A stretch of DNA of 64,000 nt from Candidatus Roizmanbacteria bacterium RIFCSPHIGHO2_02_FULL_40_13b (GCA_001789445.1 MFZQ01000003.1:2796-66795); one strand, 5' to 3'; counted from the first letter of the stretch, positions 1,882 to 60,470 are shown. A program made the numbers and translations. Notes: a model not told the origin generated them from the letters alone.

Positions 1882-1915
1882 CACATGTTCGTATTGGTTC
1901 GAAGTTTATATTTCG

Positions 1916-1933
1916 GCTGGGGAGCAAGGATTC
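1916..1933. repeat. 18/18 direct copy of the tRNA-Gln 3' end (att-like island boundary)
   Basis: gctggggagcaaggattc is identical to 5774-5791, the 3' acceptor/T-arm of the tRNA on the minus strand. It lies 3 nt from the HepT stop codon. Confidence 0.75.
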
Positions 1934-1936
1934 TAT

Positions 1937-2275
1937 TTAGAGTATATTTTCAAACTTTTTTATTTCCACTTCCAACTCAGGTAGACTTTCTGTAATTGTT
2001 TGCCAGACTATTTCCAGATCAACACCAAAATACTCATGAATAAGTTTGTTTCGCATAGCCTGCATAAATTTCCACGGTAAGTTTGGATATTTTTGTTTAA
2101 ATTCTTCTTCAAGTTGTGTTGATGCTTCTCCAATTGTTTCAAGTTGACGAATAACTGCATCATGAGTTTTATCATCTTCTATAAATTGCTCAAATGTAAG
2201 ACCACGTACATACTTTCCAATCTTATTTATAGCCTCTTGAATATGCTCAATGTAGATTTTAGGATCTTTGTCCAT
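1937..2275 (-). CDS. hepT: HepT-like (DUF86) toxin of a type VII HepT/MNT TA pair
   Basis: Translation contains the RNKLIHEYFGVD motif (Rx4HxY). It overlaps the end of the upstream MNT gene. Start moved to the MDKDPK methionine. Confidence 0.8.
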   Translation of the reverse strand: MDKDPKIYIEHIQEAINKIGKYVRGLTFEQFIEDDKTHDAVIRQLETIGEASTQLEEEFKQKYPNLPWKFMQAMRNKLIHEYFGVDLEIVWQTITESLPELEVEIKKFENIL

Positions 2276-2561
2276 AAATAGTCTGCAAATCTTTAATAAC
2301 AAAAGGTTGTATTCGGGGACTAAGTGCTTTTTTTGTGACTAGCTCTACTTTCCTATGTAATTCTTTACCTAGCTCCTCTTCGGCAGAAAGTAGCTTAAAA
2401 TACGTTACAGGATTCTTAAATTCGACTAATAGATCAACATCACTGTCTTTTTTTTCTTGGTGGCGGGCATATGAGCCAAATAAACCCAAAAACCGAATAT
2501 CGTGTCTCTGACAAAAATCAGCCACTGCTTGTGTATCATTTAGAAAAATAAGTGTATCCAT
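2259..2561 (-). CDS. mntA: MNT-type nucleotidyltransferase antitoxin
   Basis: GLFGSYARHQEKKDSDVDLLVEF matches the GSxxR...DxD minimal nucleotidyltransferase motif. It lies immediately upstream of the HepT gene. Confidence 0.85.
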   Translation of the reverse strand: MDTLIFLNDTQAVADFCQRHDIRFLGLFGSYARHQEKKDSDVDLLVEFKNPVTYFKLLSAEEELGKELHRKVELVTKKALSPRIQPFVIKDLQTIYGQRS

Positions 2562-2619
2562 ACTCTAATTATAGTACACATCCAAAAAGTTTCCGAAGAA
2601 GATGGTTTTATGGTTCAGA

Positions 2620-3117
2620 CTAGTTGTTCAATCTTTCAGTATTATCAGTAAATGATGAATACGTTTCAAATTTCCATCTATTCTTTTCGCTCATTTGCCC
2701 ATTTTCATCATCAGATAGCAAGAATGTTTCATTAATACTCATTACTATTGTTGCTTCACATCCTGTTCCGCAATTATAAGTTATTTTGATATTATTATCT
2801 GGCGTCCATTCCCAACCACTAGTTCTAAAATCCCCAGCATAAAATCTTCTCATTTCATTTGTTTTTAAATTCGTGATAAAAAGTTGGTAATAGTTATTCT
2901 TATCATCATAATTACCTCTTAGAGAGTCCATTCGATATAGTTTGCTAGGAGAAATTTCCGCATCCAAACGATAAAGTAGATGTTTTGCGTATTCTATTTC
3001 ATTCGGATTGTTCACATTAACTTGTTGCGTTGACTTAATGGGAATATTTTTTTCTTTCGCAGGGAACAGGCTTACACCAACAAGTAAAAGTAATAATAAA
3101 AGTAAATATTTTCTCAT
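2620..3117 (-). CDS. Secreted hypothetical protein
   Basis: N-terminal MRKYLLLLLLLLVGVSLF signal-like segment. Its start overlaps the stop of the upstream hydrolase gene by 4 nt (operon-like). Confidence 0.5.
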   Translation of the reverse strand: MRKYLLLLLLLLVGVSLFPAKEKNIPIKSTQQVNVNNPNEIEYAKHLLYRLDAEISPSKLYRMDSLRGNYDDKNNYYQLFITNLKTNEMRRFYAGDFRTSGWEWTPDNNIKITYNCGTGCEATIVMSINETFLLSDDENGQMSEKNRWKFETYSSFTDNTERLNN

Positions 3118-4325
3118 AGTTTATAAAATCGGGTATTGCCAATTTCAACGGTAAGCTTCTTTTGATCAACCCAATCGGGGAGATGGTTTAAGTCTTTTGA
3201 AAGGAAGTGATTTGCTCCCATTGTGGGATCTTTTACTTGATCTAGGATTATAGCTAACGCAGATTCGTAGCTATCTTGCCATGCATTATTTTCAAGAGAG
3301 TTATCTAGCGGTGGATTTGTAATCTTTTTGAAAACATCCTTATTTGGATCATTGAAAGGTTCATATTGTAATGGTTCAAGTATGACAGCATGAAATGTTT
3401 TACCCCACCTATTTTTACTATCTACAACTCTATTTCTAATTGCCCAGCCGACCCCAATTTTTGCTTCTTTTGATTCCCCTCCAGCTTCTCCGTAGATTGC
3501 TCTGGCTAAAATTATTACTTCGGTATCATCGTAAAAATTATTCGTCCATTTTGGATTCTCTATAGTTGGAATATCTTTTGGAAATGATAATTCCTTTCCA
3601 AAATCAAGAATAACTTTTTCTAGTGTTGGCATTCTATCTGCATCAACTTCAACGTAGTGCAATCCTTCTGACTGATTTATTGTGAATAATTGAGTTTCGG
3701 TTTTAGTAGGGGTAGATATAGATAAAAGAGATCCTACAAATCTCCAAAGAACGTGTTTTATTGTTGAGATAAGGCTTCCTTGAATTCTGTTATCTATTTT
3801 TATTTTCACGTCATCGCTATCTTTTTTACGTCGAGAGTATGTAAGACTAAGCGCAATAGATTTGAGAGGTAGATTATCTAAAACAAACGTTATCCATGGC
3901 CGACGGTCACCATCTTCTGCTTTTATTTTTGGATCAAATGTCAATCGTTCAACTGGGTTAAGAGTAAAAACTTGTAACCCATCAAAAGTTGCAATTCCAG
4001 GAGTTTTGTCTGTTTCTAAAAGAAGTGTATGGTTTTCGCCCTTCAAAAAAGTGAGAAAATAAACTGTTTTAGATAAATTATGTAACTTTCCTCCACTAAA
4101 AGCTGCTGGGGAATCGATAAGTGCACTTGATTGAAGTTTTGGAAATAATTTACCATCAATTTTTACTGTTAAATCCTCATCATCTGTCGTTTGATCTCCA
4201 AGTTGTTTTTCACTTTTTACTCGCGCTGTGATAATGATTAAATAGTAAGAAGAAAAACTATGAAATTTTATTTTTTCTTTCGTTTTTATTGCTCTGCTGT
4301 GTTCATCCTCAAAAACCAGTCGCAT
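3114..4325 (-). CDS. Protein with C-terminal SleB-type cell wall hydrolase domain
   Basis: The C-terminal block ILARAIYGEAGGESKEAKIGVGWAIRNRV...QYEPF resembles the Hydrolase_2/SleB family. The N-terminal 270 aa are unknown. Confidence 0.65.
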   Translation of the reverse strand: MRLVFEDEHSRAIKTKEKIKFHSFSSYYLIIITARVKSEKQLGDQTTDDEDLTVKIDGKLFPKLQSSALIDSPAAFSGGKLHNLSKTVYFLTFLKGENHTLLLETDKTPGIATFDGLQVFTLNPVERLTFDPKIKAEDGDRRPWITFVLDNLPLKSIALSLTYSRRKKDSDDVKIKIDNRIQGSLISTIKHVLWRFVGSLLSISTPTKTETQLFTINQSEGLHYVEVDADRMPTLEKVILDFGKELSFPKDIPTIENPKWTNNFYDDTEVIILARAIYGEAGGESKEAKIGVGWAIRNRVVDSKNRWGKTFHAVILEPLQYEPFNDPNKDVFKKITNPPLDNSLENNAWQDSYESALAIILDQVKDPTMGANHFLSKDLNHLPDWVDQKKLTVEIGNTRFYKL

Positions 4326-4431
4326 ACCTCAGTTTATCAAGATTCTATAAAAAAATCTAGTCAATATATAAATCGATCTTTGAGGTCGTAAAAGAGTGTA
4401 AAATATTTGTATGAGTTAGTCATTTGCAATT

Positions 4432-4611
4432 GTGAATAATAGACTTGCCGAAATTTATTTTGAAAAAAAGAAAGACGGGCCTGTTTTTATTGGTCATTGT
4501 TATGTAGAAAAATCAGAATATAAAACTAAGTATGAAAATACTTGGATTGAAGAGGACGTCTCAAGATATAAGTTCATTTATAGAAAAGGAGAATATAAAC
4601 TCAAAATTTAA
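4432..4611 (+). CDS. Possible small ORF (59 aa, GTG start)
   Basis: Only open frame in the otherwise empty 4326-4700 gap. No motif and below the ORF-track cutoff. Confidence 0.2.
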   Translation: MNNRLAEIYFEKKKDGPVFIGHCYVEKSEYKTKYENTWIEEDVSRYKFIYRKGEYKLKI

Positions 4612-4638
4612 TTTTAGAGGGAATTCTTCAATATTTTC

Positions 4639-4656
4639 GCTGGGGAGCTAGGATTC
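4639..4656. repeat. 17/18 direct copy of the tRNA-Gln 3' end
   Basis: gctggggagctaggattc differs from gctggggagcaaggattc at one base and has the same orientation. Confidence 0.65.
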
Positions 4657-4700
4657 CCTGCTAGTGACGGGTAAAGGAAGATTGGGAAAATTAGACCACC

Positions 4701-5360
4701 TTAGAATTTATTTGTATTTATAAACTTTTTCACTGTTTCTTCAAGAAACTTTTTTACTTCATCTGGCTCAATATTTCCTTCATTTTGATTAACAGGAATT
4801 ATTTCGAAGTTTGTGATATCACCAAAATAAGTAAGCTGTTCTAAAAATAACTTGGCATTAAAAAGCGATCCGTATGCTTTTTCCGCTTTTTCAATAATAT
4901 CCTCAAATATAATAACCTTCTTGTTTAGTAGACTATACAGATCAAAATAATCTCTATAAGCCCCTCTTCTACCTATAGTATAAGCTTTTTGTATTGCAAT
5001 GCTTTCAGAGAGATAATATGTTAATTTATCCTCATTGCCTGTTTTGAAATATTCACTAAATGGATAATATATAAACGAAATCTTTGCAGTATCGCTTGTA
5101 TATAAAGTAAGCTCATCAGATGTATCAACAGCTATGCTTTGAATAACAAGAATATTGCGTAGTTTTAAAGCAAAGTTCGGGGATATTTCTTCACTTGAAA
5201 AAAAATCAAAATCATATGATTTTCTATGATTTATTTGTAAAGCAAGAGCTGTCCCTCCAGCAAGAACAAAGTTGGAAATGTATGGCGTAAGTTTTGTCAA
5301 TACATCCAATCTTTTGTTATCCAATATATCGAGATGTAGTTTTGAGATATTTTGATGCAT
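4701..5360 (-). CDS. AbiEii/AbiGii-like nucleotidyltransferase toxin
   Basis: LAGGTALALQINHRKSYDFDFF resembles the AbiEii nucleotidyltransferase core. Confidence 0.65.
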   Translation of the reverse strand: MHQNISKLHLDILDNKRLDVLTKLTPYISNFVLAGGTALALQINHRKSYDFDFFSSEEISPNFALKLRNILVIQSIAVDTSDELTLYTSDTAKISFIYYPFSEYFKTGNEDKLTYYLSESIAIQKAYTIGRRGAYRDYFDLYSLLNKKVIIFEDIIEKAEKAYGSLFNAKLFLEQLTYFGDITNFEIIPVNQNEGNIEPDEVKKFLEETVKKFINTNKF

Positions 5361-5586
5361 CTATGGGATGCGGATAATTTAAAATAAATTTTGATATGAA
5401 ATTAAGCGTTGATGGCCGATATATTTTTAATGGTTTTTCTATAAAAATATTGGTAAGAAGCTCTTTCCCAATAGTTTTCTGGAGTTGAAAAATATCGTGA
5501 AGCGTCCCTAATGCAAGCGTGTTATGAACAAGATCTGGTGAGTCATTAGGAACATTTTTGCTATACCAAACATATGGTGATTGCAT
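5317..5586 (-). CDS. Small protein upstream of the AbiEii-like gene, possible cognate antitoxin
   Basis: Call rests on position only (its 3' end overlaps the toxin start). No motif recognised. Confidence 0.3.
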   Translation of the reverse strand: MQSPYVWYSKNVPNDSPDLVHNTLALGTLHDIFQLQKTIGKELLTNIFIEKPLKIYRPSTLNFISKFILNYPHPIDASKYLKTTSRYIG

Positions 5587-5660
5587 TTATATAGTATAAC
5601 ATAGATGCAGTTTGGTTTGCAGGGGTTCCTCCATTTTCAATATTTGTCTTTAATGACTGT

Positions 5661-5678
5661 GCTGAAGAGCTAGGATTC
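5661..5678. repeat. Degenerate (15/18) direct copy of the tRNA-Gln 3' end
   Basis: gctgaagagctaggattc in the same orientation, 96 nt downstream of the tRNA 3' end. Confidence 0.5.
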
Positions 5679-5774
5679 TCCGCCGGAGGCGGATCTCCTC
5701 CAAAGGCGGATCAGTCTCTGGCTGAAGCTTTTGGCTGAGAACCTATTCCTTCATTGCTAATCTTAACAATTGCG

Positions 5775-5847
5775 CTGGGGAGCAAGGATTCGAACCTTGA
5801 GTCGCGCTGCTCCAAAGGCAGGCGTGTTACCGTTACACCACTCCCCA
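5775..5847 (-). tRNA. tRNA-Gln (anticodon UUG)
   Basis: The reverse complement folds by hand. Acceptor TGGGGAG/CTCCCCA, D stem GTGT/ACAC, anticodon loop CTTTGGA, T arm CAAGG-TTCGAAT-CCTTG, discriminator G. U1:A72 with G73 is typical of Gln. One 27:43 mismatch; no encoded CCA. Confidence 0.85.
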
Positions 5848-6044
5848 GCGCAATTGTTAAACTTTACTGTCTAAAAACTTTCTACCTTGACCACTCACCA
5901 TTTTCCACCCCTATTCTACCAAAAATAGCCTGTAATTTGGCCTACAAAAAAGACGGCAAATGCATGCCGCCTATTTTTGCCCCTTTTATAGTAATTGTGC
6001 CCTTACACAATTAGCTCCACTTTACAATTTCTAACTCACCGTTT

Positions 6045-10327: not shown

Positions 10328-11720
10328 TCATTCTTAATCGGGAGAGGGTTTCTTCTTTCCCTAGAATCTCCATCGACTCATTTAATGGTGGAGAGATTTT
10401 TTTTCCCGTTATCGCTACTCTCATCGCCATAAAGTATTCGCTGTTTTTTATGCCCAGGTCAAGTGCTACTTTTTGCATTACTTCACCTATCTTTTCTGCT
10501 TTCCAATCAGAGACTTCAGTAAGAGCGCTTGATGTCTTCTCAAATAATTCTTTATATTTTGAGATTTCAATTTCGTATTCTTTTGGTGCTTCAAGAAAAA
10601 AATGAGCATATTCATCATATTCTTTTAATGTTTTTATTCGTTCTTGAATAAGCGGAAGTGTTCTCTCAATTAAATCTTCTGGATACTTGTCGCCAAAGAA
10701 TTTATATATTTCCTCTTTCAATTTCCCTTTTTCCATTTTCCGAATATATTCCCCGTTCATCCAAGTTAGCTTTACTACATCAAAAATTGGTGCTGATGGA
10801 TTAATGTCTTTCAAATCAAAAACCTGTATATATTCATCCAACGAGAAAATTTCTTTTTGATCCGGATGACTCCATGCCATAAGGGCCAGATAATTAAGTA
10901 TCGCTTCTTTCAAATACCCTTCCTCTAAATACCACGAAACCCACACAGCTCCTTTTCGTTTAGAAATTTTTCCTTTTTCGGGGGTACGAAGGAGAGGAAC
11001 ATGTGCAAAAACAGGCAGCTCCCACTTAAGAAAATCATACAAAAGTACATGTTTGGGAACCGACGCCATCCATTCTTCCGCACGAATCACGTGCGAGATT
11101 TCCATTAAATGATCATCCACCACAACCCCTAAATGGTACGTTGGAAATCCATCTGATTTTAAAAGTACCTGATCATCAAGTGTTTCATTTTCGATTGTAA
11201 TGGTTCCGCGAATAAGATCGGTATATGAAGTTTTCCCTTCAGGAATATGTAGTCGAATTACATGAGGAATTTTTTTTTCTAATTTCTCTGAAATTTCTTC
11301 TGCAGATAAATGTAAACAGTGTCGATCATATTTGGGCTGTTTTTTTTCTGTAATAGCAATTTGTCGAACTTCCTCCAGTCTCTCTTGTGTACAGAAACAA
11401 TAATACGCATCCCCTTGCGAAACGAGTTGCAGTGCATATTTTTTATACAACTCAAGTCGTTCTGATTGAATATACGGTCCATAGGGACCACCTTTTATCA
11501 TGTCTTCGTCTGGATCAAGTCCAAATGCATGAAGCGTTTTAAGAATCTGCTGCGCAGCTCCTTCTACCAATCTAGCTCTATCGGTATCTTCAATTCGGAC
11601 AATAAATTTTCCGTTATTTTTTTTAGCGTATGCCCAGTTAATAAGCGCCGTATATAAATTGCCAATATGTAGGTCATTTCCCGTTGGTGACGGGGGAATT
11701 CTCGTGCGTACCATAATCAA
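10320..11720 (-). CDS. gltX: Glutamyl-tRNA synthetase
   Basis: RIPPSPTGNDLHIGN (HIGH) with FIVRIEDTDRARL, and KISKRKG (KMSKS-like). Confidence 0.9.
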   Translation of the reverse strand: MIMVRTRIPPSPTGNDLHIGNLYTALINWAYAKKNNGKFIVRIEDTDRARLVEGAAQQILKTLHAFGLDPDEDMIKGGPYGPYIQSERLELYKKYALQLVSQGDAYYCFCTQERLEEVRQIAITEKKQPKYDRHCLHLSAEEISEKLEKKIPHVIRLHIPEGKTSYTDLIRGTITIENETLDDQVLLKSDGFPTYHLGVVVDDHLMEISHVIRAEEWMASVPKHVLLYDFLKWELPVFAHVPLLRTPEKGKISKRKGAVWVSWYLEEGYLKEAILNYLALMAWSHPDQKEIFSLDEYIQVFDLKDINPSAPIFDVVKLTWMNGEYIRKMEKGKLKEEIYKFFGDKYPEDLIERTLPLIQERIKTLKEYDEYAHFFLEAPKEYEIEISKYKELFEKTSSALTEVSDWKAEKIGEVMQKVALDLGIKNSEYFMAMRVAITGKKISPPLNESMEILGKEETLSRLRMII

Positions 11721-18878: not shown

Positions 18879-19826
18879 TCAATACCCTACTTTTTCCACC
18901 AACATCCAGTCAATCAAATTTTTCATACTTGTATCATTGTGCTTTGTAACCAATCCTCGATAGCTTCCACTGTTTTCCAAATTAAGATACGTTAGTATTC
19001 TTTTCCGTAGCCGTTTTTGCAATCTCCGCATATTCGGATATATATCACAGCCTAAAAAATGTAACCCACTTGCTACTGGAATAATCAAGCTATTTTTATT
19101 ATTTATCGTAAGTTTCAAAATATTATTGATAAAAAAAGTTATCAGAATCTCATATTCTTTAGCAATTTGACTATTCTCTGCCACCACTAAAAAATCGTCC
19201 CCATATCGAAGGTACCCTAAAGGTTTTACCGTATGTTCAACAAATCGATCTAGTTCGTTAAGATAAATATTGGCAAAAATCTGGCTGGTAAGATTACCGA
19301 TTGGCATCCCGGTACCTTTTTCCTTGACATAGTAACTATCAACAATCCTGTCTATTATTTTTAATGCACCGCGATCAAATACCTTTCTTCTTACTGTATT
19401 TTTCAGTATTTTATGATCTACTGTATCAAAAAATTTAGTTATATCAGACCTCCAAACATACCCGTATCGATATTTTCCTAATAAATATTGTGTTCGTTCA
19501 ATTGCTCTCAAAAGTCCTTTTCCTTTGCGACATGACCACACATCGTAGATAAAAGATTTATCAAAAAGAGCGGTCAAGTATTCGTTTACTAATCTATGAA
19601 CAATCCTGTCCAGAATTGGAGCTACTGAAATGGTTCTTTTTTTCTTATCAGTAACTTGAAATGTTCGATATAATCCATGTTTGTAGGTGCCTGTTACTAA
19701 ATCATGGTGTACTTGTGAAAGATTTTCCTCAAGATTATAAGTAAAAATATCCATTTCCGTAGTTCTTTTTTTCCCACGTTGAAATGCCTGCCAGGAAAGC
19801 CAAATCTGTGATAAACTTACGTCCAT
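18879..19826 (-). CDS. DGR-1 reverse transcriptase
   Basis: Carries the RT motifs, including MPIGNLTSQIFANIY (the [IL]GxxxSQ signature of DGR RTs) and the catalytic YGDDFLVV. It is adjacent to a TR/VR pair. Confidence 0.9.
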   Translation of the reverse strand: MDVSLSQIWLSWQAFQRGKKRTTEMDIFTYNLEENLSQVHHDLVTGTYKHGLYRTFQVTDKKKRTISVAPILDRIVHRLVNEYLTALFDKSFIYDVWSCRKGKGLLRAIERTQYLLGKYRYGYVWRSDITKFFDTVDHKILKNTVRRKVFDRGALKIIDRIVDSYYVKEKGTGMPIGNLTSQIFANIYLNELDRFVEHTVKPLGYLRYGDDFLVVAENSQIAKEYEILITFFINNILKLTINNKNSLIIPVASGLHFLGCDIYPNMRRLQKRLRKRILTYLNLENSGSYRGLVTKHNDTSMKNLIDWMLVEKVGY

Positions 19827-35612: not shown

Positions 35613-36632
35613 ATGCGTAAGATTGCAGTTGGGTTAAATGGATTTGGGAGAATTGGAAGAGCGTTTACACGAATTGCACTGAACAATCCCGATATTGAAA
35701 TTCGAGCGATTAATACTGCGCATTCAAACACAGAGATCCTCGCCCATCTCCTTAAGTATGACTCTATCTACCGAACATTTGATAAGGATGTTAGTGCAAA
35801 AGGAGATAAGATTATCGTTGGATCCCGCGAGATTGTCTGTTATAACCACAAAAACCCTGAAGAGATTCCATGGGACCACCATAATATTGATGTCGTCATT
35901 GACTGTACCGGCGCATTTAAGACACGTGATGATTTGAGCAAGCATCTACGCGCTACCGTGCAGAAAGTTATCGTCACCGCACCTGTTTCAGATGAAACAA
36001 TTCCTCATATTGTTTTGGGGTCAAATAGTGATGGGTTTGATTTTAAAGCTAAAAATGCCGATATTATCTCGAATGCATCATGTACCACCAACTGTGCATC
36101 AATTATGACAAAAGTTCTCGATGATAATTTCAAAATAAAATCAGCATTTTTAACAACCGTACATGCATATACCAGTAGTCAAGAACTTCTTGACAACGCA
36201 TCTAAAAATGAAACACGTTCTCGTGGGGCGCCACTTTCGATTATTCCGACAACCACTGGGGCTGCGGATGCAGTATGCAAAACAACCGCGTGTGAAGCTG
36301 GAAGCTTAGGAGCTATCGCATTTCGGGTTCCCGTACCCGTCGGATCAATCTCTGATATGACGTGTCTCCTCGAAAAATCAACAACGGTTGAAGAAATTAA
36401 TGAGGTATTTAGAAAAGAGTCGGAAGGAAAACTTAAGGGAATTTTAGGATATGAAAAAACCCCGCTTGTTTCTTCTGACTATATCGGCTCGCCATTTTCC
36501 TGTACATTTGATCCTAATTACACGCAGGTTTTGAATGGAAACTTCGTCAAAATCTTCGGGTGGTACGATAATGAGTGGGGATACTCAAACCGCCTGGTTG
36601 ATTTGATAGAAAAATTATCGAAATATATTTAA
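35613..36632 (+). CDS. gap: Glyceraldehyde-3-phosphate dehydrogenase
   Basis: GLNGFGRIGR, the active site ASCTTNC, and WYDNEWGYS. Confidence 0.92.
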   Translation: MRKIAVGLNGFGRIGRAFTRIALNNPDIEIRAINTAHSNTEILAHLLKYDSIYRTFDKDVSAKGDKIIVGSREIVCYNHKNPEEIPWDHHNIDVVIDCTGAFKTRDDLSKHLRATVQKVIVTAPVSDETIPHIVLGSNSDGFDFKAKNADIISNASCTTNCASIMTKVLDDNFKIKSAFLTTVHAYTSSQELLDNASKNETRSRGAPLSIIPTTTGAADAVCKTTACEAGSLGAIAFRVPVPVGSISDMTCLLEKSTTVEEINEVFRKESEGKLKGILGYEKTPLVSSDYIGSPFSCTFDPNYTQVLNGNFVKIFGWYDNEWGYSNRLVDLIEKLSKYI

Positions 36633-37708
36633 CTCCAAAACCATACATTGTTTTGCAATTCTTTTGATAAACGGTATGTATTCGCATGGCTCAAATATCC
36701 AATATACGACTGGAGCGACTGATCGAATGTTTTTGTATCAATTTTCTCTTTTAACTTAGAAAATACTCTTCTCTTTGTCTTTGTCCGCGGCAGGCGATAG
36801 TGAGGTAAAACAATGTATCCCAAAAAATCTATTCCCCATTCAAGTCTCCGGATAATTATTTTATTTTCATGAAGTGAAAGTTTTAGGTGATTACTTAGAA
36901 AATCTCTTATTTGTTCAATTACTTGAGATATCCGGCTTTGATTTTTGAATAATATAACAAAATCGTCAGCATACCGAATATAGTGGTGGATCTTCAACCC
37001 ATGTTTGACATACTGATCAAGTTCGTTCATGTAAATATTAGCAAACACTTGGCTTGTGAGATTACCAAGAGGGATACCACGTGGAGATTCTATCGTCCCG
37101 CCTGCGACGGGACTCCAGAATGACACATTTCTTGTCATCCTGGACCGGAGGCCGAAGGCCGTAGGGATAGGATCCCAATTCACCTCAAAACTATCAATAA
37201 CCTCTGAAAGAAGTCGAATACTATTTTCATCTTGTATCTTCTTTGCAAGTAACTTTTTAAGAATCTCATGATCAACACTGGCAAAGAATTTATTGATGTC
37301 TAAATGAAGCGCCCAGCAATCTTGCGTATAGTTCTTGGAAACTTTACGGGTAAAAACTTCCAGTCGAGAAACTGCTTTATGAGTTCCTTTATTTAATCTG
37401 CATGAATAAGAGTCTGTGATAAATATTTTGTCAAAAAGTTGGTACAAATATGTGTACAACAAATGATGTACTACCCGATCCTGGACACTCGCTTTATGGA
37501 TATGTCTGCGCTTTGGATCATTAACATAGAATGATTCATATGAACCGTGTCTATATTTTTTAGTAACAAGATCTTGATATAGAGCAAAAAGATTGTCTTC
37601 AAGGTACCGCTCAAAAAGCTGGACATCTTTTTTACCACCCTTTCCCTTCCTAAATTCACCCCATGCACGAAAAACACTGTCCAGACTGACTAATGTGTTA
37701 TAATCCAT
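36629..37708 (-). CDS. DGR-2 reverse transcriptase carrying a ~28-codon repeat-element insertion
   Basis: IPLGNLTSQVFANIY and RYADDFVILF. It aligns with RT1 except for the extra NWDPIPTAFGLRSRMTRNVSFWSPVAGGTIESP. Start moved to MDYNTL because the upstream ATGACA is an element terminus. Confidence 0.85.
   Translation of the reverse strand: MDYNTLVSLDSVFRAWGEFRKGKGGKKDVQLFERYLEDNLFALYQDLVTKKYRHGSYESFYVNDPKRRHIHKASVQDRVVHHLLYTYLYQLFDKIFITDSYSCRLNKGTHKAVSRLEVFTRKVSKNYTQDCWALHLDINKFFASVDHEILKKLLAKKIQDENSIRLLSEVIDSFEVNWDPIPTAFGLRSRMTRNVSFWSPVAGGTIESPRGIPLGNLTSQVFANIYMNELDQYVKHGLKIHHYIRYADDFVILFKNQSRISQVIEQIRDFLSNHLKLSLHENKIIIRRLEWGIDFLGYIVLPHYRLPRTKTKRRVFSKLKEKIDTKTFDQSLQSYIGYLSHANTYRLSKELQNNVWFWS
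37100..37176. mobile_element. Palindromic repeat-element insertion inside RT2
   Basis: tccagaatgaca/tgtcatcctgga 12-bp inverted repeat plus a ggccgaaggcc core shared with the elements at 37718 and 55751. Absent from RT1 at the aligned position. Confidence 0.65.
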
Positions 37709-37717
37709 ATCTAAATT

Positions 37718-37763
37718 TGTCATTCCCGCGAAGGCCGAAGGTCCTCGTAAGGGGACGGGAATC
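37718..37763. mobile_element. TGTCAT/GGCCGAAGG MITE-like element between RT2 and avd2
   Basis: tgtcattcccgcgaaggccgaaggtcctcgtaaggggacgggaatc. Same termini and core as 55751-55826. Confidence 0.65.
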
Positions 37764-59605: not shown

Positions 59606-59640
59606 CCCTTATTCTTTGATACAATATGCTCATAATTCAT

Positions 59641-60087
59641 ATGAGAATTTACAATAAAAAAGCAACGCGGGATTATACAGTAATCGAAACCTATGAAGCG
59701 GGTATTGCGTTGCATGGGGCAGAAGTGAAGGCTGTGCGTGCGGGAAATATGAAACTTGAGGGTGCACATGTACGATTTATCGATAATGAGCTGTTTCTCG
59801 TAAATTCCGAAGTCTCGATCTACAAATTTGCTCGTCCTGAAGATTACAATCCTACACGCACAAGAAAACTACTCTTACACAAGGGGGAGATTTTACGCTT
59901 GAGAACAAAAATGAAGACGGCAAACAATTTGACTGTTATACCTATAGCATGTTATAATAAGAAGAGCTTATTAAAGCTTGAAATCGCGCTTGTTAAGAGT
60001 AAAAAGAATTGGGAAAAGAAGCGAGTAGAACAGCGTAAAGATGAAGAAAGAAAGATTGAGAAAGAAATGAAGGAATATAGGGGATGA
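59641..60087 (+). CDS. smpB: SsrA-binding protein SmpB
   Basis: NKKATRDYTVIETYEAGIALHGAEVKAVRAG and the basic C-terminal tail. Confidence 0.9.
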   Translation: MRIYNKKATRDYTVIETYEAGIALHGAEVKAVRAGNMKLEGAHVRFIDNELFLVNSEVSIYKFARPEDYNPTRTRKLLLHKGEILRLRTKMKTANNLTVIPIACYNKKSLLKLEIALVKSKKNWEKKRVEQRKDEERKIEKEMKEYRG

Positions 60088-60470
60088 ATGGTATCGACGT
60101 AGAGATCAGCACATTAAAAAATCGCCAGGCCGGACCTATCCGTTAAATAGAAAACTCTAAATGCAGAAGATAATTCTGTAGGTTACGGCTACCAATATGC
60201 ACTTGCTGCATAATCAGTAGTTAGTAACCCGTTTTCTTCACCGTTTTACTCTGTGTTCAACACGAAGAAAGCGAAAACCAATACAGAGTGCGTAGTTTCT
60301 GGATTTTATAGCTAGTTTGCCAGATTCTGCAAAGGCCCCTCGGGGTATACAAACAATTGCTTCCACCGAAAATTGATGATTATATCGGCGGAATACTAAA
60401 TCATCTATGCCTGGCTACACGATTTGCAATGTGCCTTTACGGACCCGGGTTCAACTCCCGGCATCTCCAC
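60080..60470 (+). ncRNA. ssrA: tmRNA (SsrA)
   Basis: 5' GGGGATGAATGGTATCGACG. Tag reading frame 60163-60213 is GCA GAA ... = AEDNSVGYGYQYALAA-stop. 3' T arm CGGGTTCAACTCCCG, and acceptor CATCTCC pairing with the 5' end. Confidence 0.85.

Follow-up and report, generated by a model that had tools for sequence, protein, structure and literature searches.

A tandem array of integrase-less islets at the 3' end of a tRNA-Gln gene in Candidatus Roizmanbacteria, likely a grounded remnant of repeated site-specific recombination

Why do the last nucleotides of a tRNA gene recur behind it, in the same direction, around genes that include no recombinase? The question is raised by a 64-kb stretch of DNA (here the window, whose positions are used as coordinates throughout) from an uncultured groundwater bacterium, Candidatus Roizmanbacteria, in which an intact tRNA-Gln(UUG) gene is accompanied by displaced copies of its own 3' end that delimit two small groups of genes, islets A and B. 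Positions 1916-5791 are best read as a fixed array produced by repeated site-specific recombination into the tRNA-Gln(UUG) 3' end, likely a grounded remnant, and we put the probability of this reading at roughly 65%.

The tRNA-Gln gene is the single tRNA detected in the array region by ARAGORN and Rfam, and its CCA is not encoded. On the plus strand its 3' end reads GCTGGGGAGCAAGGATTC (copy 4), an 18-mer that spans G57 to G73 of the tRNA and one base more. The three further copies described in an earlier note on this DNA (copies 1 to 3, Table 1) were recovered; all are direct, all lie 3' of the tRNA within 3.9 kb, and the 64 kb contain no additional match at three mismatches or fewer, so that the 18-mer is not scattered elsewhere in the window. 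Shuffled sequences gave a chance expectation of 0.03 matches, and a composition model one of 2.9e-5 at one mismatch or fewer and 0.016 at three or fewer. A chance origin of the copies is excluded.

Copies 1 and 2 break off cleanly in the T-loop, between C56 and G57; their flanks on the side of the tRNA body (60 nt) are no more tRNA-like than shuffled sequence, and the score of the copy 1 flank, which has no extra tRNA similarity, was reached by 757 of 2000 shuffles. The repeat extends weakly into ~11 nt of the tRNA trailer, giving a 29-nt family with 69-83% identity. At tRNA position 64 the four copies read A, T, T and A in order, so two alleles can be told apart: the one that pairs with A50 of this tRNA is found in copies 1 and 4, the other in copy 2 and also in copy 3 of a second contig of the strain (L001). 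This pattern shows the inner copies to be derived from a different tRNA-Gln allele, the one on the phage-like contig L096 (described below). Conservation with relatives beyond the neighbouring gene for a 295-aa protein stops where copy 1, the outer limit of the array, begins. Rfam detected no RNA family other than tRNA in the region. From the stop codon of the 295-aa gene to copy 1 the flank is native, and in it begins a hairpin motif (GGTTCGAAG...TTTCG) that relatives likewise conserve after this gene; a hairpin with T-arm-like sequence (GTTCGAATCC...TTTCGAGG) directly follows the 295-aa stop codon in the window and in contigs L011, L014, L104 and L100, and that of the window is shortened by copy 1.

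The same position was compared in relatives, whose loci were marked by homologues of the 295-aa protein (63-70% identity). In both the window and contig L015 the order of genes is the 295-aa gene, tRNA-Gln, gltX, Peptidase_S11, a class II aminoacyl-tRNA synthetase (tRNA-synt_2), recJ and cca, and the DNA between the 295-aa gene and tRNA-Gln has a different content in every lineage. In L015 this is a Phd/PIN cassette between two ~88%-identical copies of a ~115-nt unit ending in the tRNA 3' end, and in L012 and L013 PemK and ParE/Phd genes. L014 contains three diverged 190-nt spacer-plus-18-mer units between small gene blocks, after which comes a larger element with serine recombinase and restriction genes. 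A large serine recombinase is present in L104, and an 89%-identical truncated remnant of it in L016. In L011 a spacer of only 460 nt leaves the site almost empty. The integrations proposed in the earlier note are thus supported by relatives, which differ in cargo at the same position upstream of gltX, include an almost empty site and do not have the gene order of the window in common.

Displaced ends with the T-loop boundary of copies 1 and 2 were found in six other contigs (five loci) of the candidate phyla radiation (CPR, Patescibacteria); the exception among the ends in L011, L014 and L015 is a single copy of 13 nt in L014. The body of this tRNA, used as a query, was found in 18 contigs from about 11 other CPR lineages, two of which have an 18-nt 3' fragment with the same boundary 0.8-1.0 kb downstream. 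In each of these two (L142 and L143) a single-gene islet is enclosed, and neither islet has an integrase. Comparison of L142 with L129 showed flanks that are 94% identical and tRNAs that are 100% identical around enclosed DNA that is entirely different. Fragment-bounded segments in the seven CPR genomes examined measure 0.08-2.7 kb and contain one to four genes and no recombinase. Since the C56|G57 boundary is uniform over independent events, genomes and alleles, it argues for a precise recombinase and not for deletion or duplication.

Some relatives repeat a unit of 115-190 nt between small gene blocks, composed of the tRNA-Gln(CUG) trailer and the tRNA's final 18 nt; two copies of it even enclose the Fic and 295-aa genes in L014. 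The unit has no match in Rfam. The possibility that the repeats of the window are the 190-nt spacer unit of relatives was rejected, as the spacer profile has no match in the window.

A search for the enzyme gave consistently negative results. No recombinase domain was found in any open reading frame (ORF) of 1934-5773, nor among the 44 ORFs of at least 150 aa in the rest of the window, so that neither a tyrosine nor a serine recombinase was found in the ORFs of this size in the 64 kb. A tblastn search of the window with four large serine recombinases from relatives revealed no remnant, and neither the window nor ten further CPR lineages with the same tRNA body and a readable downstream flank have a recombinase next to the tRNA. 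The only recombinases at this hotspot among the relatives examined are the large serine recombinases of L014, L104 and L016, and the L016/L104 element is located within the spacer and outside the tRNA.

In contig L096 (IMGVR_UViG_3300025000_003383; 50-1539), which also encodes a terminase and a methyltransferase, 98 nt separate the end of the gene for a 440-aa large serine recombinase from a tRNA-Gln(UUG) 3' end that equals copy 2; the far end of the element is not on the contig. The enzyme was considered as the cognate integrase and not retained, the link being unproven and eight related viral recombinases having no tRNA or fragment nearby. Viral contigs scanned for the 18-mer gave four matches, two of them in real tRNA-Gln genes; the other two (L097 and L099), in DNA that appears to be coding and has no tRNA, are most simply explained by chance. 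A crossover in the T-loop is typical of tyrosine integrases, and in 2014 serine integrases were stated not to be known to target tRNA genes (PMC4383910), yet a T-loop crossover was also inferred for islands with CcrB-family serine recombinases at ssrA of Dehalococcoides (PMC3146451). A tyrosine integrase is not to be assumed here, and a connection of serine recombinases with the T-loop site is unproven.

To see how the array varies within the strain, exact look-ups of the 295-aa flank protein and of the MNT protein of islet A were made in ENA, JGI, Logan and NCBI, and returned 23 contigs each. Every contig examined that reaches the array has the same genes in the same order, and ten aligned same-strain contigs are 99.9-100% identical. 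No alternative cargo and no second context were found among the same-strain contigs examined, and the assemblies yielded no circular or empty junctions. The junction predicted for an empty site is ...GTTTATATTTCG + GCTGGGGAGCAAGGATTC + GAACCTTGAGTCGCG; those predicted for circles are ...CTTCAATATTTTC + GCTGGGGAGC[A/T]AGGATTC + TATTTAGAGTATATT for islet A and ...TTTAATGACTGT + GCTGGGGAGCTAGGATTC + CCTGCTAGTGACGG for islet B. JGI metagenome contigs, scanned for exact matches to the left junction as pointers to empty or alternative sites, gave none; the collection evidently has no samples holding the strain.

Because the array is invariant in all assemblies examined and no recombinase occurs in the tested ORFs, a fossil is favoured: the locus would most likely consist of two integrase-less islets that have come to rest and not of an active element. 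The earlier note had left the choice between fossilised and trans-mobilised islands undecided, and the identical array in every same-strain contig examined tips it towards the former. Its observation that the islets lack an integrase gene held and now extends to the window's ORFs of at least 150 aa. Successive integration, which it also proposed, is retained for copies 1 and 2. The 'third segment' of 113 nt consists of a decayed piece of tRNA-Gln and a trailer and is no island. The cargo it had listed (HepT/MNT, a secreted protein with a SleB-like hydrolase, and an AbiEii-like pair) held, with Pfam matches for HepT, MNT, the hydrolase domain and AbiEii.

This cargo is AT-rich. Islet A has a G+C content (GC) of 0.328, against a window mean of 0.387 (standard deviation, SD, 0.039); both islets are 1.5-2 SD under the mean, and the lowest-GC 1-kb stretch of the window (4251-5250) overlaps islet B. 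Next to copy 1 lies a toxin-antitoxin (TA) pair, in which hepT is complete, with its stop codon 3 nt from copy 1 (a public gene call gives 112 aa, 1937-2275). At the domain level the pair is assignable to the type VII HepT/MntA systems, with Pfam matches above their cut-offs and genes that are adjacent and overlapping; in NCBIfam both proteins score below the 60-bit cut-offs (HepT_toxin 47.3 bits, MntA 57.5 bits). Contigs of at least five independent assemblies end inside hepT/mnt (window ~2150-2437) and not at the repeats, which hints at possible paralogous copies elsewhere in the genome or community.

The remainder of the well-supported cargo of islet A is a cell-wall hydrolase gene with its partner. 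The hydrolase has 304 homologues at E <=1e-5; the 120 homologues listed are 46-68% identical and nearly all full length, those with names belong to Microgenomates and other CPR, and hydrolase homologues occupy unrelated, apparently non-mobile neighbourhoods. The 165-aa partner is 45% identical to the product of the gene downstream of a hydrolase homologue on a Collierbacteria contig (L107). The two genes form an operon conserved across Microgenomates, which is not typical accessory cargo. In islet B the AbiEii-like gene is also matched by AbiEii models of PADLOC, down to 5e-9. Its 89-aa partner, for which no match was found with AbiEi models or other families of Pfam, PADLOC and NCBIfam, is a candidate antitoxin by position alone.

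Table 1. Positions of the tRNA-Gln gene, the 18-mer copies, the islets with their genes, and further features of the window and of related contigs
Feature	Position	Strand	Remarks
Native flank, stop codon of 295-aa gene to copy 1	1882-1915	.	post-stop sequences listed in 11 loci
Copy 1, displaced tRNA-Gln 3' end, A variant	1916-1933	+	18/18; outer boundary of array
Islet A, 2705 bp	1934-4638	-	all well-supported genes on minus strand
HepT-family RNase toxin, type VII TA	1937-2302	-	Pfam PF01934, 1.8e-30, profile positions 1-119/120
MntA-type nucleotidyltransferase antitoxin, overlaps hepT	2259-2561	-	Pfam Polbeta and NTP_transf_2 (9e-14); PADLOC PDC-S09, 5e-23
165-aa protein, N-terminal signal-like hydrophobic segment, hydrolase operon partner	2620-3117	-	
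403-aa protein, C-terminal SleB-like cell-wall hydrolase domain	3114-4325	-	Pfam PF07486 (Hydrolase_2), 2.2e-11, residues 283-401
59-aa ORF, reality uncertain	4432-4611	+	gene call in two public contigs; no family match
Copy 2, displaced tRNA-Gln 3' end, T variant (A64 in tRNA numbering)	4639-4656	+	17/18
Islet B, 1004 bp	4657-5660	-	GC 0.312
AbiEii-like nucleotidyltransferase, 219 aa	4701-5360	-	Pfam PF08843, 7.2e-11, 42.9 bits against a cut-off of 22.5
89-aa upstream partner ORF, overlaps AbiEii-like gene	5317-5586	-	no family match
Polymorphic patch	5587-5666	.	intergenic; ends inside copy 3
Copy 3	5661-5678	+ strand match	15/18, 3 mismatches
Copy 3 with extension, decayed tRNA-Gln 3' half, anticodon loop to 3' end	5661-5707 (approx.)	-	
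Gene-free spacer	5708-5773	.	part of segment C (5679-5773, GC 0.505)
Perfect 20-bp inverted repeat	left arm 5763-5782, right arm 5841-5860	.	repeat search
Copy 4, 3' end of intact tRNA-Gln	5774-5791	+	
tRNA-Gln(UUG), intact	5775-5847	-	ARAGORN (extends to 5774); Rfam RF00005, 59.1 bits
RVT_1 reverse-transcriptase genes, two	18879-19826; 36629-37723	-	
smpB, then directly tmRNA (transfer-messenger RNA) gene	59626-60470		tag AEDNSVGYGYQYALAA
Displaced tRNA-Gln ends with the same boundary, related contigs	L011 6184-6201; L014 7441-7458, 8839-8856; L015 ~10993-11010; L130/L142; L143		
115-190-nt unit, related contigs	L014 7263-7459, 8663-8857, 10890-11083; L015 10883-11011, 11957-12142; L016 9304-9439		
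Single-gene islets, FkbM-type methyltransferase or 221-aa secreted protein (one each)	L142 3214-4215; L143 2462-3315		oriented copies

The order of events, the class of the recombinase and the present immobility of the array are matters that we infer. Recombination would have rebuilt the tRNA from the incoming copy each time, pushing the previous 3' end outward, so that copies 1 and 2 would be displaced ends delimiting islets A and B. The longer tRNA-Gln piece at copy 3, since decayed, would stem from an event that was older or of a different kind. The TA genes and a useful cell-wall operon would have been kept, and mobility genes lost or never present; in a small, deletion-prone genome, TA modules and an envelope operon would be the expected survivors.

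Several observations weigh against this account. For this species no empty site, other occupancy or excision junction was found, and insertion is inferred from relatives only. The hydrolase operon (46-68% identity among the matches listed) is conserved like the neighbouring 'core' 295-aa gene, which makes it odd cargo for an island. The DNA just inside the displaced ends has no common motif, and a single recombinase should give a shared arm; a CTAG near the T-stem 5' strand position is present only at copy 2 and at the L014 and L015 copies. If the crossover was on the T-loop side, the T variant would leave this tRNA with an A50-A64 mismatch. Finally, the trailer of the tRNA pairs with its leader over 13 bp, which is not predicted if the trailer came with the last element; the pairing could be explained by incoming DNA with a copy of the native trailer, as in L014 and L015, or by a whole tRNA that arrived with both flanks.

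A whole tRNA arriving with both flanks is the core of an alternative for 5661-5860, in which the resident gene was disrupted, leaving copy 3, by an element that came with a complete tRNA-Gln whose leader and trailer pair, so that only copies 1 and 2 would be classical displaced ends. The flank of copy 3 holds GCCTTTGGAG, which covers the anticodon loop with some of its stem, at most 1 nt off the correct register; even with the register left free, just 9 of 2000 shuffles attained the score of this match. As this flank matches the anticodon loop, copy 3 is the end of a decayed tRNA-Gln 3' half; the similarity is nevertheless broken by ~19 unrelated bases, a point against the replacement. The perfect 20-bp inverted repeat encloses the intact tRNA and lengthens the acceptor stem by 13 bp of leader-trailer pairing; the final 11 nt of the gene-free spacer pair with the 5' leader. 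The minimum-free-energy fold (-53 kcal/mol) has the cloverleaf atop a long stem. Such an extension is unusual for a bacterial tRNA precursor; possibly it is a stem used in processing, or possibly it indicates joint movement of the tRNA and its flanks.

Two relatives have layouts in line with such a replacement. In L011 the spacer contains the 18-nt end of an L015-type tRNA, 80 nt from a quite different complete tRNA-Gln, and L100 (4834-5301; also L102) has the 5' half of a tRNA-Gln(CUG), an HNH endonuclease ORF and a complete tRNA-Gln(CUG). Phages are moreover known to disrupt a host tRNA and to supply their own copy (PMC10865867). Against it, no second tRNA-Gln 5' half was found in the window, and the genes on the 5' side of the tRNA include housekeeping ones (era, purN and purD) and no mobility gene. 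We consider the replacement unlikely. The tRNA-Gln/HNH structure of L100 is on the opposite strand with respect to the other relatives, and a bAvd and reverse-transcriptase pair, typical of diversity-generating retroelements, adjoins the same tRNA-Gln hotspot in this contig.

Variation within the strain is concentrated at copy 3. Over 9 kb the window and L001 differ at 9 positions, 8 of them in the intergenic patch next to and inside copy 3 (5590-5666), and copy 3 of L001 reads GCTGGGGAGCTAGGATTC, which is 17/18 identical to the tRNA end, versus 15/18 in the window. A GG-to-AA change in copy 3 produces a match to a nearby GCTGAAG (5722-5728); together with the patch, it suggests a short conversion tract or templated mutation. 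Mutagenesis by a diversity-generating retroelement was rejected for the patch, whose substitutions are not adenine-specific and which is intergenic.

The islets could alternatively still be mobile, as cassettes mobilised in cis or in trans at the T-loop site by a recombinase encoded elsewhere in the genome or by a phage. The polymorphism at copy 3 fits this, as do the small size and lack of recombinases of the fragment-bounded segments in the window, L015, L014, L011, L142 and L143, the complete HepT gene 3 nt from copy 1 at a precise boundary with no deletion scar, and the units ending in the 18-mer that L014 and L015 repeat between cassettes. A precedent is offered by the module-less ssrA islands of Dehalococcoides, proposed to be cis-mobilisable (PMC3146451). 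However, the arrangement is identical in every same-strain contig examined, no second context with an identical cassette was seen, and neither the window nor the ten other CPR lineages have a recombinase adjoining the tRNA. The window copies also have no conserved arm or attC-like structure, the spacer profile of relatives misses the window, and a search of viral contigs for the islet cargo (hydrolase, AbiEii) gave no close relatives. Continued mobility seems to us distinctly improbable.

A broader proposal, more doubtful again, is that the tRNA-Gln 3' end of CPR is a landing site for swappable integrase-less cassettes, each mimicking the last 18 nt of the tRNA. The cassettes would be TA pairs and single envelope or methyltransferase genes, with the 18-nt mimic joined by the trailer in some lineages, and a recombinase encoded elsewhere, possibly of the large serine type, would stack and swap them. 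If true, this would be a functional integron whose attI is the T-loop of a tRNA.

That the 18-mers are chance matches, or RNA signals for processing or termination rather than scars, is scarcely credible, for although the islet genes are co-oriented with the tRNA and a read-through transcript is conceivable, shuffle and composition statistics rule out chance, the fragments have no partner strands from the 5' acceptor and T-stem and so cannot fold into a tRNA-like minihelix, and Rfam finds nothing at the copies.

Among known systems, an intact tRNA with direct displaced 3' fragments is accepted as the mark of a site-specific integration in which the target is rebuilt. In the Islander collection, 1836 of 3919 islands have attachment sites in the T-loop/T-stem region, and tandem arrays number 125 with at least two islands and 4 with at least three (PMC4383910). 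The array resembles these islands in its intact tRNA with direct 3' fragments downstream, which start in the T-loop in copies 1 and 2; the crossover sublocation is canonical, and copy 3 reaches the anticodon loop. It differs in lacking the integrase that Islander requires of each island, in its segments of 1.0 and 2.7 kb and in its CPR host. As for sporadic presence, which Islander also uses, occupancy differs between relatives (63-70% protein identity) and the same-strain contigs are all alike.

The tandem ssrA islands of Dehalococcoides are the closest known analogue. They have ~20-bp repeats of the gene's 3' end, and 15 of them have no integration module and were read as cis-mobilisable or fixed (McMurdie et al. 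2011, PMC3146451). Both systems are tandem, with ~20-bp 3'-end repeats, an insertion point in the T-loop, module-less members and one conserved position that sets the repeats apart from the intact gene. The targets differ (tmRNA there, tRNA-Gln here), and the CcrB-family module and the 15-bp motif beside the repeats there were not found in the window. The large serine recombinase (CcrB-like) beside an attachment (att) repeat that marks ssrA genomic islands and staphylococcal cassette chromosomes is absent from the window.

Other likenesses are more partial. Cis-mobilisable elements (CIMEs) form by tandem accretion with integrative and conjugative or integrative and mobilisable elements (PMC5704250; PMC6323972); the window segments are similarly flanked by att-like repeats and carry genes for neither recombination nor transfer, but have no adjacent integrase-bearing partner element. 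Integron arrays share the short, co-oriented, TA-rich cassettes at one site, and the 115-190-nt unit repeated between cassettes in relatives is a further likeness; unlike integrons, the window site has no intI beside it, and its repeats are 18-29 nt of tRNA sequence with no imperfect palindrome of the attC type. In the tRNA-dependent lysogeny of actinobacteriophages (PMC10865867) the remnant of a disrupted tRNA also lies beside a complete tRNA that shares its isotype, as in copy 3 and in L011; no prophage or integrase is present here, and the likeness is one of layout only.

Taken alone, the window locus is ordinary, probably an immobile island remnant. Its least ordinary aspect is comparative: the fragment-bounded segments are all short and recombinase-free in the seven CPR genomes examined. 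Our literature searches found no paper describing tRNA-anchored islands in CPR, whose mobile DNA is poorly charted. In several CPR lineages genes turn over recurrently in the 3' flank of tRNA-Gln, with a precise T-loop crossover and TA-dominated cargo, and a concrete att sequence is now given for tracing the responsible recombinase. If this enzyme is a large serine recombinase, it would run contrary to the 2014 statement on serine integrases and tRNA genes (PMC4383910).

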